Assembly (NCBI GenBank): GCA_022777645.1
Contig: JALFFX010000059.1
Coordinates: 1 to 53,316 of the forward strand
Reading direction: 5' to 3'
Origin: Erysipelotrichaceae bacterium
GTDB lineage: Bacteria; Bacillota_I; Bacilli_A; RFN20; CAG-826
Length of the DNA stretch: 53,316 nt
Each line of letters begins with the position of its first letter. The first letter of the stretch is position 1. Positions 12,260-52,340 of this stretch are shown here, in pieces. Position numbers and translations under genes: made by a program. The notes beneath the pieces are model-generated. The model ran no database searches, had not been told where the DNA came from, and saw only the letters and a list, made by a program, of their open reading frames with translations.

Positions 12260-12622
12260 CTATTTTATTTTTGTTGGATCTACGCCCATCTTGAATAAGT
12301 ATCTTTCGTACTTATCAATTTTTTCATATAACTGGATATTATCGAAATTGGCGCCTTTTTTATTTTTTACTGCATCTATTGTTTTTTTCATTCCACTTAT
12401 TTGAACTTCAAGTTCGCTGTTTTTGTCACGAAGAGTTTTGAATTTGCTTTCAAGTTCAGCGATATAATCTTTAGCTTCTTTGTAGAAATTTTCATAATAT
12501 CGTAAATCACTGATGACTTTATCAAGAGTGGAATCTACATGATATGCGTCATAGCCTTTTACATTTTTCTTGAATTTGAGATTCAACAAATCGTCCGCAC
12601 AGTAATTAAGTTTAACAGCCAT
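12260..12622 (-). CDS. gpsB: DivIVA-domain protein, GpsB-like
   Basis: FKKNVKGYDAYHVDSTLDKVISD plus a coiled coil; directly upstream of rnpB. Confidence 0.8.
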   Translation of the reverse strand: MAVKLNYCADDLLNLKFKKNVKGYDAYHVDSTLDKVISDLRYYENFYKEAKDYIAELESKFKTLRDKNSELEVQISGMKKTIDAVKNKKGANFDNIQLYEKIDKYERYLFKMGVDPTKIK

Positions 12623-12700
12623 ATTTTCTCCAGTGCTTTAATTATATTAAAACTCAATAAATAAAACAATCATCAACAGAACAATTTATACTTCACCTAA

Positions 12701-13990
12701 TTAATTTTTTAATGCAGTTATCGGAATAATATAAACTCCATCAGCATTTTTATATGCCATATTACCAGCACCATAAATAACACATTTCATTATTGGCTCT
12801 TTACCGCCATTATTAACTATATCTTTGCAAACTTTGATTAAATTGTTTGAGCCTTCTTCTGCTTTGTTTAATCCTAATTTTATTTCAATAGCACACCAAT
12901 TGCCGTCTTCAAGTTCTATAACTGCATCAATTTCATTATCTTTATAATCTTGATAGTGAAATAATTTGGCATTCATGGCTTGAGCATATATAGACAAATC
13001 TCTTTCAACCATTGCTTCAAACATGAAACCAAAAGTATTTAAATCATTCATCAGTTTCTTTGGTGTTAATTTAAGCATTGCGCATGCCATTGCAGGATCA
13101 GAAAAATGTCTTTTTTCCATTTGTTTAACACGTAAAGAAGATCTTATGTTCGGTGAAAATGGTTCTTGATTGTTAAACAAAAACATTCTATTAAACGCAT
13201 CTAAATATTTGGATAAAGTATTTTTGCTAATAGATGAATTATCGTTTTCAATTATGTCATTTAAAATGCTTTGATTAGAAACGGTTGTTGATTCGTTTCT
13301 AGCAAGTGATTTCAAAATAAGCTTTGCTTTATGTTCATTAAAATCAATATCTTTATTTATTTGTTTTAAATCTGTTTTAACAACATTCTCCATGTATCCT
13401 AGGGCTAATTCACCACAATCATTTACATTAACATTAATATTTCCAGGCCAGCCACCTCTAACAATTAAGTAGGATAGTTTTTCAAGAGTCGTCTCTTCTA
13501 ATATTTTTGATTCAAATTTATTTTCACATAAGTCTTTTAATGAAAATAATCCACTCGAATCACCGGATTCGTATAACGACATCGTATTCATTCTAATACT
13601 TTTGATTCTTCCTGTACCACTATGCAAAATGCCTTTATTAACTGGCGTTGAGGATCCCGTTAAAATTAGTTGACCCTTGCTACCACTTTTATCAACAAAC
13701 GCTCTTGTTGCATCCCATAATGCAGGAACTTCTTGCCATTCATCAATTAAGCGAGGAGCATCCCCTTTTAAAACGGTATAAGGTTCAAGTTCAGCTAACA
13801 TTCTATTAGAAAAATTCCCACTTGGATCGCCAACTAGAAATTCGCTATTAGCGTGATGTGATGATGTCCACGTTTTTCCACACCATTTAGGTCCTTCAAT
13901 ACAAATAGCGCCAAATATTCTTAAATCCCTTTTCACTTGTTTATCGACTATTCTGGCTTTATAAATAGAATCATTAGTTATTTTCTTCAT
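12701..13990 (-). CDS. AAA_14-type ATPase with DUF4143 and a C-terminal PD-(D/E)XK nuclease-like domain
   Basis: GPKWCGKT (Walker A), LIDEWQ (Walker B), LILTGS, RGGWP, KRHFSDP, GFMFE, EIDAVIE...AIEIK. Confidence 0.9.
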   Translation of the reverse strand: MKKITNDSIYKARIVDKQVKRDLRIFGAICIEGPKWCGKTWTSSHHANSEFLVGDPSGNFSNRMLAELEPYTVLKGDAPRLIDEWQEVPALWDATRAFVDKSGSKGQLILTGSSTPVNKGILHSGTGRIKSIRMNTMSLYESGDSSGLFSLKDLCENKFESKILEETTLEKLSYLIVRGGWPGNINVNVNDCGELALGYMENVVKTDLKQINKDIDFNEHKAKLILKSLARNESTTVSNQSILNDIIENDNSSISKNTLSKYLDAFNRMFLFNNQEPFSPNIRSSLRVKQMEKRHFSDPAMACAMLKLTPKKLMNDLNTFGFMFEAMVERDLSIYAQAMNAKLFHYQDYKDNEIDAVIELEDGNWCAIEIKLGLNKAEEGSNNLIKVCKDIVNNGGKEPIMKCVIYGAGNMAYKNADGVYIIPITALKN

Positions 13991-14021
13991 AGCATCACAA
14001 CTCCTCTACGTTACTATTGTA

Positions 14022-14050
14022 AGTTTATTAAACTGACCCATATTTGTCAA
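14022..14050 (-). promoter_or_regulatory. Sigma-A type promoter of the AAA gene
   Basis: Minus strand TTGACA (14050-14045), 17 nt, TAAACT (14027-14022); GAGGAG SD downstream. Confidence 0.7.
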
Positions 14051-14122
14051 GATAACTGACCCATATTTGTCGAGATAACTGACCCATATTTTAGCTTTAT
14101 ACTGACCAAGATTTTTGATTTC
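14031..14122. repeat. Tandem 23-bp direct repeats, four units decaying away from the gene
   Basis: aactgacccatatttgtcaagat / aactgacccatatttgtcgagat / aactgacccatattttagcttta / tactgaccaagatttttgatttc, starting at 14031, 14054, 14077 and 14100. Confidence 0.92.
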
Positions 14123-14285
14123 GCTTTATAATTTTATTCAAAAATATTTAAAAACAAACCCAATAAAACATTCGTGTTTCCTTAGAATACCACCGCCAAA
14201 CTAATTGAAAGCAAGATGATTCGAGACTAATTTTTAATATTTTTGCTAATCACAAAAAAATCTTTGCTATAATATTGAGCGAAAT

Positions 14286-15011
14286 ATGAAATATTTAGAA
14301 AAACATCTCAACAAACGTAAAGTCTTGTGCTTTCTTGACTTAGAAGGCACTCAATTTAGTCATGAAATGATCGCTCTTGGTGCAGTCAAAGTCGACATTA
14401 AAAAAGATGGCTCAATCAAAAAAATCCATAAAGGATACTATTCTCTTGTTAAAGCTAAAAATAAAATCGGAAAAATCGTTACTGATTTAACAGGCATCAC
14501 TGAAGCGATGGTCAAGCAAAATGGCAAATCACTTCGCGTTGTTATTTCCGAATTTAAAAAATACATGGGCAAAGATTTTAGCAAAACATTGTTTGTGACT
14601 TTCGGCTCTCATGATTTACGCATTTTGGCGCAATCACTTGCTTATAATCTTGATGCTCCAAAAGAAGAAATTCAATTGATGATTAAACACGGCTTTGATT
14701 TTAGCGAATTCATGAGCCAATATGTTCGCGATGATAATGGCAACACATATTCCCTTGCTAATAGTTTAAAATTATTCGGCGTTGATTTTGAAGGCACTCA
14801 ACACGATGCTTATGCAGACGCCCTTAATCTTGCTTATTTATATGATGCCTTTATTAAAAATAAAGACATATTAAAAAATGAATACAAAAAAGTGTTATAT
14901 AATTATCGACACATTCCAGCGCCAATTAAGGAATTATTAACAAATCTTAAAGAAGGCAAATCAATAACTCCTGAAATATTTGATCATCTTGTTGAGGAAG
15001 ATTTGCAATGA
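14286..15011 (+). CDS. DEDDh 3'-5' exonuclease (KapD/ERI-like)
   Basis: FLDLEGT, LTGITE, FGSHD, QHDAYADA; TGCTATAAT extended -10 upstream. Confidence 0.85.
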   Translation: MKYLEKHLNKRKVLCFLDLEGTQFSHEMIALGAVKVDIKKDGSIKKIHKGYYSLVKAKNKIGKIVTDLTGITEAMVKQNGKSLRVVISEFKKYMGKDFSKTLFVTFGSHDLRILAQSLAYNLDAPKEEIQLMIKHGFDFSEFMSQYVRDDNGNTYSLANSLKLFGVDFEGTQHDAYADALNLAYLYDAFIKNKDILKNEYKKVLYNYRHIPAPIKELLTNLKEGKSITPEIFDHLVEEDLQ

Positions 15012-51281: not shown

Positions 51282-52340
51282 ATGGAAATCGAGGTAAAAC
51301 CATTATCATCTAACGGCTTTATTGCCTTCTTCCAACGCATTTATCGTTGGTGGTTAAGTGTTTGGTATTCATTTTCTGACAAACACCCTAAATTTGCATC
51401 CTTACTTTATAAAGTAGGATTCTTCTTCGCCTTCTCAATGGCGGTTACTGTTTGGCAATTTATCATCATGACTTTCTTGCCATACGCCTTCACATCAACA
51501 TGGGGAACACCATTTTGCTGGCCTCGTGTTGAATTACCATTTAAAGATGCAGCCGGCAATGCTTTATATTTTGGAATTTTCAATGAGCCAGCTCAATTTG
51601 TAGATGCAGCCGGAAAAACATTCCAAGCATATACAGAAGCTGAAGTTCAATTGATGTCGCTTAATCCAGCATTAACTCTTAAAGCAGGTGGTTTAGGCAA
51701 CTTCATCGCTTTTGAAATTGCAGTCTTCACTGCCCAATGCATCAACTTCCCACTTCAAAGAAACATCACATATAAATCAAAAGGAAATCCATATTTCCAA
51801 GCTTTGATGTATTTTGTTGGTTGGGTTGGCGTTTCTATTCTTACAAACGCTATATGGGGCATTGCAAATCCACTTCTCCTCTCATGGAATATGCCTGATG
51901 TTGTTATTGGCTTATTAAAAACATTCCTCACCGGTGGTGTCTCAATGTTTATCTTCTTCTTCATTTTCCTTCTCATTTTCCCAAATCTTGAGAACAGTGC
52001 TAAATCATTAGAAAAACGTTATGAAAAAGCCAAAGATTCAGATATGAGTGATGAAAAGAAAGAAGCCCTTCATCAAAAAGCTTTAGCTATGAGAAAAAGA
52101 GCAGATGAAGAAAACGCTCGTTTAGCAGTAATCTCTACTTCATCAATCGCAGATTCAAAAGCCATTAATTATCATTCTTGTTTAACAAGATTAAATAAAA
52201 TGAAAGATGAAAAAGGCGATGCGAATGAAATTGCTGAACTTGAAAAATTATTAAATACAAAACTTGAAGAAGCTATTAATGCAAAAAAACGCCACGAAGA
52301 AGCTGTTAAGGTGTATAATAGTTTGCATGAAGCTCAATAA
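51282..52340 (+). CDS. Membrane protein, GtrA-like core with an insertion and a C-terminal coiled coil
   Basis: Four hydrophobic segments; INFPLQRNITYKS resembles the GtrA NF-x-LNR-x-TF motif; helical charged tail. Confidence 0.55.
   Translation: MEIEVKPLSSNGFIAFFQRIYRWWLSVWYSFSDKHPKFASLLYKVGFFFAFSMAVTVWQFIIMTFLPYAFTSTWGTPFCWPRVELPFKDAAGNALYFGIFNEPAQFVDAAGKTFQAYTEAEVQLMSLNPALTLKAGGLGNFIAFEIAVFTAQCINFPLQRNITYKSKGNPYFQALMYFVGWVGVSILTNAIWGIANPLLLSWNMPDVVIGLLKTFLTGGVSMFIFFFIFLLIFPNLENSAKSLEKRYEKAKDSDMSDEKKEALHQKALAMRKRADEENARLAVISTSSIADSKAINYHSCLTRLNKMKDEKGDANEIAELEKLLNTKLEEAINAKKRHEEAVKVYNSLHEAQ

Follow-up and report, generated by a model that had tools for sequence, protein, structure and literature searches.

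The window analysed here, positions 1-53,316 of contig JALFFX010000059.1 (forward strand) from the Erysipelotrichaceae bacterium assembly GCA_022777645.1, carries on its minus strand a gene for a 429-aa protein, P0001, in which an ATPase, a winged helix and a PD-(D/E)XK nuclease are predicted to follow one another. Immediately upstream of the gene lies a short array of 23-bp direct repeats (Table 1). The locus is chromosomal, among recA, gpsB, recU and dnaD, and was described in a first-pass annotation as lying between gpsB and recU; gpsB is indeed the neighbour on one side, whereas on the other side the gene adjoins an RNase_T-family exonuclease gene, which in turn precedes recU. Comparison with related loci identifies the array and the gene as a self-contained, portable one-gene module. 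The predicted promoter of the module lies within a series of four asymmetric boxes, each of about 13-18 bp, which are arranged head to tail at 23-bp intervals. With a probability of roughly 0.7, we propose that the array is a self-addressed operator, to which the encoded protein binds and through which it would regulate its own gene negatively.

Table 1. Features of the ATPase-nuclease locus, with positions in the window
Feature	Position	Strand	Basis or remark
P0001 gene, 429-aa ATPase / winged-helix / PD-(D/E)XK nuclease	12701-13990	minus	Open reading frame, Pfam, PADLOC, AlphaFold
P0001 key residues	Walker A G33-T40; Walker B D83-E84; R128; H3 256-268; nuclease E325, D355, E369, K371		
Predicted -35 hexamer TTGACA	14045-14050	minus	Final A is the first base of box 1; promoter scan
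Predicted -10 hexamer TAAACT	14022-14027	minus	Starts 18 nt after the first base of box 1; promoter scan
Shine-Dalgarno-like AGAGGAG	14001-14007	minus	10 nt before the ATG at 13990; inferred from sequence
Box 1 (proximal), AAATATGGGTCAG	14033-14045	minus	Inside the 17-nt -35/-10 spacer; equal placement in 7 close relatives
Box 2, AAATATGGGTCAG	14056-14068	minus	Sequence, Tandem Repeats Finder
Box 3, AAATATGGGTCAG	14079-14091	minus	Sequence, Tandem Repeats Finder
Box 4 (distal, decayed), AAATCTTGGTCAG	14102-14114	minus	Fourth box at the equivalent place in close relatives
Conserved portable unit: four boxes, promoter and gene to stop codon	12700-14121	minus	blastn against relatives elsewhere
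Weak flanking direct repeat, left copy	12640-12671		Family D3, 72% identity over 32 nt; gpsB promoter region
Weak flanking direct repeat, right copy	14142-14173		Continues into empty-site-like sequence

Tandem Repeats Finder returned 39 rows for the window, among which the array at 14031-14091 (2.7 copies, 97% matches) has the top score, 115, and is the sole row of period 23. A 14-nt core, ACTGACCCATATTT, has three exact copies in the window, 23 bp apart (at 14032, 14055 and 14078), and a fourth copy, with 2 mismatches, lies at 14101. The whole array, spanning 14031-14114, thus comprises three perfect units and one decayed unit, in agreement with the four direct repeats decaying away from the gene that had been described initially. 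On the gene strand each unit is made of a 13-nt box (AAATATGGGTCAG) and a 10-nt spacer. Both the window and 7 close relatives (76-96% identity) carry four boxes, every unit retains the core AAATNTNGGTCA(G/A), and the proximal box always stands directly before a -10-like hexamer, while the 10-nt spacers between boxes vary freely. Such conservation of the boxes amid drifting spacers suggests a protein-binding site under selection rather than the outcome of recent slippage. The TGAC-N8-GTCA dyad reported by the first-pass annotation is present in the window, although it is complete in only 2 of the 7 close relatives (L010 and L046) and absent or incomplete in the other 5; we therefore rejected it as a conserved feature, and it looks incidental.

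Matches to the family were found in 36 of 61 related genomes (0-16 per genome), with up to 16-17 family matches in genomes of 1-2 Mb, and Tandem Repeats Finder detected a period-23/24 array upstream of 21 of the 26 clade genes in related genomes. In a scan limited to one genome per species, 589 relatives were returned, 80 loci were kept and 78 could be analysed: the best upstream array had a period of 22-24 in 60 of these and of 46 in 2 more, and the loci are distributed over Bacillota, Bacteroidota, Spirochaetota, Verrucomicrobiota and Fibrobacterota. An autocorrelation detector, which takes the best upstream self-similarity at lags between 8 and 40, placed this lag at 22-24 in 104 of 112 clade genes, and at exactly 23 in 98 of them; 2 of the 8 misses are distant family members. 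With the same detector, lags of 22-24 were obtained for 6 of 73 regions downstream of these genes and for 80 of 856 regions upstream of all open reading frames of at least 150 aa in the window's genome, both of which correspond to the 9% chance level. The 22-24-bp periodicity that the first-pass annotation had expected upstream of homologs is therefore borne out. Addition of 80 metagenome loci, some of whose bins may be contaminated, raised the set to 181 genes in total, and an array was detected at 161 of them. A viral collection yielded 24 relatives, and an array with a lag of 22-24 was present at 23 of 23 family genes on viral contigs; the exact two-box pattern of the window, searched in the same collection, was not found. 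Likewise, an array precedes 12 of 12 full-length genes at least 34% identical to P0001 in a Pfam-based phylum sample, including genes from genomes that read TGA as a sense codon. At 12 DUF4143 members of about 25% identity with a GxRQxGK Walker A motif, the upstream regions showed self-similarity no higher than noise, and no lag recurred consistently. The 23-bp array is therefore a hallmark of the clade. Two of these distant genes display candidate operators of other kinds, namely a long palindrome (tatacaaatttaaagt/actttaaatttgtata) on the promoter of L152 and two 14-nt direct repeats (ATGCGTAAAAATAT), 32 bp apart, at L172.

The number of boxes that match the consensus of their own locus ranges from 2 to 8 across 137 non-redundant loci, being most often 3 (55 loci), 4 (47) or 5 (15). 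Amplified arrays of 7-9 units are seen at L168 (9 units), L180 (7.7 units), L104 and L077, and L168 additionally contains a 69-bp higher-order repeat equal to three 23-bp units. Long arrays such as the first two could be taken to indicate that the repeats are neutral, functionless products of replication slippage, but a single period maintained across five phyla, boxes kept while spacers drift and controls at chance level are poorly compatible with this explanation and leave it next to no probability.

Once the 161 unit consensuses had been set into one circular register, a family-wide frame emerged, which reads roughly A-A/C-A-W-m-T-n-n-C-k-G-A-W-T-r-A-A-A; one A is present in 159 of the 161 consensuses and another in 149. 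The box is asymmetric, and its centre (positions 10, 11 and 13) is free to vary. By simple arithmetic, 23 bp correspond to 2.19 turns of B-DNA, whereby successive boxes would be rotated by about 70 degrees around the helix axis.

The best promoter-like site of the region in a promoter scan, matching 10 of 12 positions, is TTGACA followed by a 17-nt spacer and TAAACT. The spacer includes all of the proximal box, and the inter-box spacer that precedes this box ends in TTGACA, which agrees in coordinates with the arrangement initially put forward; the related TCGACA said to accompany unit 2 was located at 14073-14068. When the 137 non-redundant loci were aligned on the proximal box, T was found at +18 in 95 and at +23 in 72, outlining a -10-like T-A-n-n-n-T element at a fixed offset from the box, and the TAAACT of the window sits exactly there. 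Box 1 consequently overlaps the predicted core promoter, the position expected of a self-operator. The median distance from the start of the proximal box to the ATG is 63 nt, with start codons set by rule and possibly misplaced at some loci.

Whether the boxes and the protein evolve together was addressed by mutual information with average product correction (APC), calculated between box positions and alignment columns for 137 non-redundant pairs (9,660 combinations). The top pair links box base 13 to residue 257 (0.55, z 11.3) and the second base 14 to residue 255 (0.39); base 12 with residue 257 ranks sixth, and residue 256 is the best partner of base 11. High-scoring pairs that involve base 5 are numerous, are scattered throughout the protein and look like a clade marker. 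In the AlphaFold model, helix H3 of the winged helix begins with residues 255-257, which supply its N-cap and first turn, and it is at the start of this recognition helix that helix-turn-helix proteins usually contact bases. The preferences at residue 257 are explicit: N accompanies T in 28 of 36 cases, E accompanies G in 21 of 27, K accompanies G in 15 of 16 and P accompanies A in 7 of 9, while D (n=31) is found with C in 17 and with G in 12. This exchange is met repeatedly in differing sequence backgrounds, one clade pairing ...DENTV... with ACTGAA and ...DEDTV... with ACCGAA, and another pairing ...D.NTV... with GACTGAAT and ...DVETV... with ATCGGATT. After division by source into 93 genome-collection loci and 44 metagenome-contig loci, base 13 and residue 257 rank first of about 9,650 combinations in each half (z 9.6 and 10.1). 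Related sequences are not independent, which bears on all of these statistics; in a test restricted to phylogenetically independent pairs, for which the tree was computed with columns 250-272 left out, the N257/T13 association was represented by 8 pairs, of which 5.6 agreed in direction and 0.1 ran the other way (median p 0.03), and P257/A13 gave p 0.06. The co-variation of box sequence with the winged-helix domain that the first-pass annotation had anticipated is thus observed between bases 11-14 and residues 255-257, and provides good comparative evidence suggesting that each protein reads its own boxes.

Box sequences also differ between the paralogs of single genomes. The gene is not solitary, contrary to the original description: the 1.30-Mb genome also contains an intact paralog, a split third copy, two remnants and, more distantly related, at least one DUF4143 gene (contig C17). 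The intact paralog (81% identity, contig C3) is preceded by a 23-bp array with related boxes, AAATATCGGTCAA and AAATATTGGTCAG, accompanied by TTGACA and TAAAAT. The third paralog (46% identity) is split across two contig ends, C65 (L011) and C14 (L012), and has a wholly different 23-bp repeat (L011 1098-1197, 4.4 units; boxes GAAAAAAGTGCAC..., unit GAAAAAAGTGCACTCA...). A whole-genome Tandem Repeats Finder pass yielded only 5 period-23 arrays with a score of at least 60, and all 5 adjoin an intact or remnant family gene. Two of them lie on contig C7 (51893-51961 and 59308-59384, with units TGCCAAACTTGCGGTT... and TGGGATTTAATTAGTGCCAAAAA). What follows each is no more than a short family-gene remnant (tblastn E 1e-5 and 9e-8), and these operator arrays therefore appear to have outlived their genes. 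Private boxes on a common period thus characterize 3 paralogs of this genome and also 10 in genome G034, whose boxes differ from one another. Recognition of the boxes by a host factor or by some protein other than the encoded one, which could in principle also produce a conserved upstream site, fits poorly with these data: box sequences differ among the paralogs of a single genome, co-variation between box bases and residues of the encoded protein is seen in both data sets that were analysed separately, and across five phyla the array accompanies the gene. We regard it as highly improbable.

Two Pfam domains are recognized in P0001, AAA_14 (residues 28-141, E 1.9e-11, 44.5 bits against a cut-off of 27) and DUF4143 (residues 218-372, E 5.8e-30, 104.6 bits against a cut-off of 28.1), and the PADLOC model PDLC04790 of the candidate system PDC-S01 matches residues 12-427 (E 2.5e-54, 182.6 bits). 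There is no NCBIfam model for the protein, and a phmmer search of PDB sequences gave no significant match (best E 0.042). An AlphaFold model built on 20 relatives (predicted local distance difference test score, pLDDT, 92; predicted template modelling score, pTM, 0.91) indicates a four-part protein: the core of a STAND/AAA+-type ATPase occupies the residues up to about 167, a helical lid extends as far as about 214, and a winged helix (H1 219-231, H2 239-250, H3 256-268, wing to about 297) then leads into a C-terminal alpha/beta nuclease domain of the PD-(D/E)XK type (299-429). G33, P34, K35, C37, G38, K39, D83, E84 and R128 are invariant in a 20-sequence alignment, and so are the nuclease residues E325, D355, E369 and K371, for which reason both the ATPase and the nuclease activities look intact. 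The motifs EIDAVIE (353-359) and AIEIK (367-371), previously noted as intact, were both located and contain the invariant D355, E369 and K371. In the model E325 lies on helix 317-338 and the other three residues on strands 353-359 and 365-373, an arrangement that reproduces the D...(D/E)-x-K signature on a beta-sheet, with a preceding helix bearing the Glu, by which PD-(D/E)XK nucleases are recognized.

Structural comparison relates the remainder of the protein to STAND and archaeal ATPases. Residues 1 to about 307 of the model superpose on the archaeal ATPase and winged-helix protein 2qen (VIA-align, Z 14.8; 259 residues aligned, root-mean-square deviation 4.3), and a second protein of this kind, 2fna, is matched with Z 13.5. 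The NB-ARC modules of plant NLRs and CED-4 follow (VIA-align, Z 11.4-12.5); taken together, these matches cover the model from residue 1 to about 310-367. Together with the three-domain fold, the conserved Walker A, Walker B and arginine are those expected of this ATPase group. Orc1/Cdc6-DNA complexes and DnaA are among the Foldseek matches to the model, and for the C-terminal part Foldseek retrieves the Card1, Can2 and Cdn1 nucleases at low TM-score.

The unit of about 1.4 kb formed by the array and the gene appears to have been inserted at its present location. In 28 of the 29 congener loci examined, gpsB and the exonuclease gene stand next to each other in divergent orientation, without the unit between them, and the 29th runs off its contig; the empty-site gap is 88-110 bp in 27 loci and 376 bp in one, compared with 1,663 bp in the window. 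The gene and its array therefore represent an insertion of about 1.5 kb in the genome of this species. Homology (blastn) to relatives in other contexts starts within the array, at 14086-14121 depending on the relative, and ends at the stop-codon region (12700-12708) in 8 of 10 relatives, namely those whose locus holds the 3' end of the gene. A DNA contig of run X4 carries the gene and departs from the window sequence exactly at 12700, and since other X4 contigs bridge both junctions, the insertion exists in other pig-gut samples as well. A copy at 96% identity adjoins a DNA polymerase III gene in another congener. Array and gene hence travel together, with homology ending at both edges of the unit, and both the one-gene module of protein plus array and the empty site envisaged by the first-pass annotation are recovered. 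Copies that are 76-77% identical and have the same GGTCA-type boxes are filed under Bacteroides uniformis (L042) and Hallerella sp. (L048), which suggests inter-phylum transfer if these bins are clean and bin contamination otherwise. Close relatives often have further genes or gene fragments of the AAA_14/DUF4143 kind as neighbours, so that paralogous cassettes occur in clusters (L014, L042, L048 and L183).

On the 3' side, gpsB begins 78 bp downstream of the gene on the same strand (12623-12700 lying between), and the former gpsB promoter region still seems to be present at about 12640-12671. A promoter and terminator scan of the region found no terminator-like site 3' of the gene; read-through from the cassette into gpsB is therefore possible.

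These observations raise the question of whether the array is rather a cis-acting site for movement of the cassette, with the ATPase-nuclease cutting its own repeats so as to excise, copy or home the 1.4-kb unit. The inserted unit and the empty site of the congeners, the end of homology at the distal box and the stop codon, the copy beside the DNA polymerase III gene and the presence of 0-16 matches per genome would all suit such a mechanism. So would the neighbourhood, for no recombinase was found in the 11 neighbouring open reading frames scanned; integrase and methylase domains are equally lacking in them, as originally noted. Comparison of the DNA upstream of the array with that downstream of the stop codon furthermore revealed clear flanking direct repeats of 21-53 nt in 7 of 152 loci (L096, L169, L190, L248, L252, L216 and L049), which may mark insertion by target duplication. 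However, the remaining 145 loci have no flanking repeat above the shuffled level, the flanking repeat of the window is just 72% identical, the array is confined to one end of the unit with no copy of the box downstream of the gene, and the fixed offset from the -10 element finds an explanation in transcription and not in recombination. We therefore consider a movement site to be very unlikely. A combined form, in which the family would be a minimal self-mobilising element that uses its private boxes both to throttle the promoter and to nick or pair DNA and so copies the 1.4-kb unit, would explain why the unit ends at the distal box and the stop codon, the lack of a recombinase, the accumulation of up to 16-17 matches in genomes of 1-2 Mb and the presence of close relatives in different phyla, and is given an equally slim chance.

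In the regulatory scheme that we favour, one protomer would dock on each box through its winged helix, the first turn of H3 (S255, K256 and N257 in P0001) reading the variable centre of the box. The fixed 23-bp spacing would allow adjacent protomers to touch, and the array would then fill cooperatively, the ATPase modules providing the cooperativity. As the proximal box lies in the -35/-10 spacer, a filled array would shut the promoter, and a potentially harmful nuclease might in this manner be held at a low, buffered level wherever the cassette lands; were the protein drawn away or consumed, the promoter would reopen. Binding, cooperativity, repression, the part played by ATP and the biological role, toxicity of the nuclease included, are steps that we infer from comparative data, and the binding step taken alone is more likely than binding combined with negative autoregulation. 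An alternative that retains binding is that the array functions mainly as a platform on which the oligomer is assembled or stored, or as a site of activation: an inactive oligomer would sit on its own DNA until a trigger released it or switched it on, control of the promoter being a side effect or even positive. The evidence for binding is identical under both explanations, STAND/AAA+ relatives work by triggered oligomerisation, which matches the fold, and 3-5 boxes are present where a single one would suffice for occlusion. The proximal box, on the other hand, occupies the classical place of a repressor, within the -35/-10 spacer and at a fixed offset from the -10 element, and we judge the platform or activator role to be unlikely.

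Several points weigh against the self-operator. Repression, activation and storage cannot be told apart from the position of the boxes alone, and in many STAND proteins the winged helix serves oligomerisation instead of DNA binding. Promoter-like matches in this AT-rich stretch numbered 9, compared with 10.3 expected in shuffled sequences; the promoter assignment is therefore founded on the offset seen throughout the family, not on the scan. An array was not detected at 20 of the 181 clade genes, and the common register of the unit consensuses came from our own optimisation. In addition, the conservative test of independent pairs reaches only p ~0.03 for N257/T13, and the E/G, D/C, K/G and D255/G14 contrasts are not significant, though all are in the expected direction.

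Head-to-tail repeats of about 20 bp that are read by an adjacent winged-helix gene product are familiar from plasmid iterons and their Rep initiators (pPS10, R6K, RK2 and P1), and the present arrays share with them a spacing of about two helical turns, a position beside the reader gene and a specificity private to each element. They differ in that the module is chromosomal and multi-copy, shows no sign of an origin and encodes an ATPase-nuclease in place of a WH1-WH2 Rep protein, and in that the proximal repeat lies inside the promoter, whereas autoregulation by Rep usually proceeds through a separate inverted repeat. A similar parallel can be drawn with Orc1/Cdc6 and its ORB boxes or with DnaA and the DnaA boxes on the dnaA promoter, where an AAA+ module joined to a DNA reader acts on asymmetric boxes beside its own gene. 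The Foldseek matches to 2qby_B, 2v1u_A and 3r8f_A (E 5e-6 to 1e-4) nevertheless have low TM-scores of 0.22-0.28, better matches being 2qen, 2fna and the STAND NLRs (Z 12-15); initiators moreover lack a nuclease, and the family described here is mobile, with diversified paralogs. On account of these TM-scores and of the nuclease domain fused at 299-429, identity as an Orc1/Cdc6 initiator was rejected. The size, order and spacing of the repeats and the fold relationship to Orc1/Cdc6 and DnaA would also be consistent with an iteron-type replication origin or a centromere-like partition site. Against this stand the location among recA, gpsB, recU and dnaD, the occurrence of up to 16-17 copies in small genomes, the overlap of the array with the predicted promoter at a fixed offset and the yield of only 24 relatives from the viral collection, and such a function, being poorly compatible with these data, is barely credible.

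Closer in regulatory terms is MalT, an NTPase of the STAND type that oligomerises on asymmetric direct-repeat boxes at promoters, and whose structure 8bob_C is a low Foldseek match to the P0001 model. MalT responds to a sugar and uses a LuxR-type domain to switch on other operons, whereas in the present family the DNA appears to be read by the winged helix that belongs to the NTPase module, the target would be the gene's own promoter and the effector is a fused nuclease. The controller (C) proteins of type II restriction-modification systems, together with their C-boxes, offer a further likeness, as a portable nuclease gene brings along its own operator and limits its own expression; C proteins, however, are small separate helix-turn-helix dimers that bind palindromes, while reader and nuclease are here parts of one polypeptide facing 3-5 direct repeats.

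By its whole-length model match, its two Pfam domains, its single-gene organization and its patchy, multi-copy distribution, P0001 resembles the PADLOC candidate PDC-S01 (AAA_14 PF13173 plus DUF4143 PF13635; COG1373). In the accessible portions of the respective papers, PDC-S01 is listed as a candidate found by genetic embedding and as the fourth most common defence candidate in prokaryotes, validation being pending for most such candidates (PMC12988326), it is the most frequent single locus in rumen genomes (PMC13356809), and DUF4143 is given as a member of the PD-(D/E)XK superfamily of unknown function (PMC3424549). The same portions of these three papers make no mention of upstream repeats, DNA-sequence specificity or autoregulation of the family, and the main text of the source preprint (10.1101/2024.01.29.577857) names neither PDC-S01 nor DUF4143. 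No published description of the array or of its autoregulation was found in the literature searched, subscription journals being outside its coverage. A role in phage defence is a candidate label taken from the database. If the array of private boxes and its residue-to-base code hold true, they would give the PDC-S01 family a concrete ligand and a testable regulatory logic, the site of each paralog could be predicted from its sequence, and the array would offer a handle for gel-shift, footprinting and cryo-electron microscopy studies of how a STAND-like ATPase assembles along DNA. The family would also offer naturally orthogonal protein-operator pairs.

Parts of the gene are covered at 95-99% identity by metatranscriptome contigs (X16 and X17; 13241-13466, and 12770-13132 with 13164-13555), which can show neither start, strand nor expression and may stem from DNA carry-over, making them weak evidence of RNA; stretches left uncovered in these runs carry no meaning. 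A search of 12500-14400 for known RNA elements (Rfam) gave two matches only, both far below the gathering scores. Elsewhere in the window, at 52237-52286, there is another tandem repeat of similar period (24 bp, 2.1 copies, 81% matches, Tandem Repeats Finder score 63).

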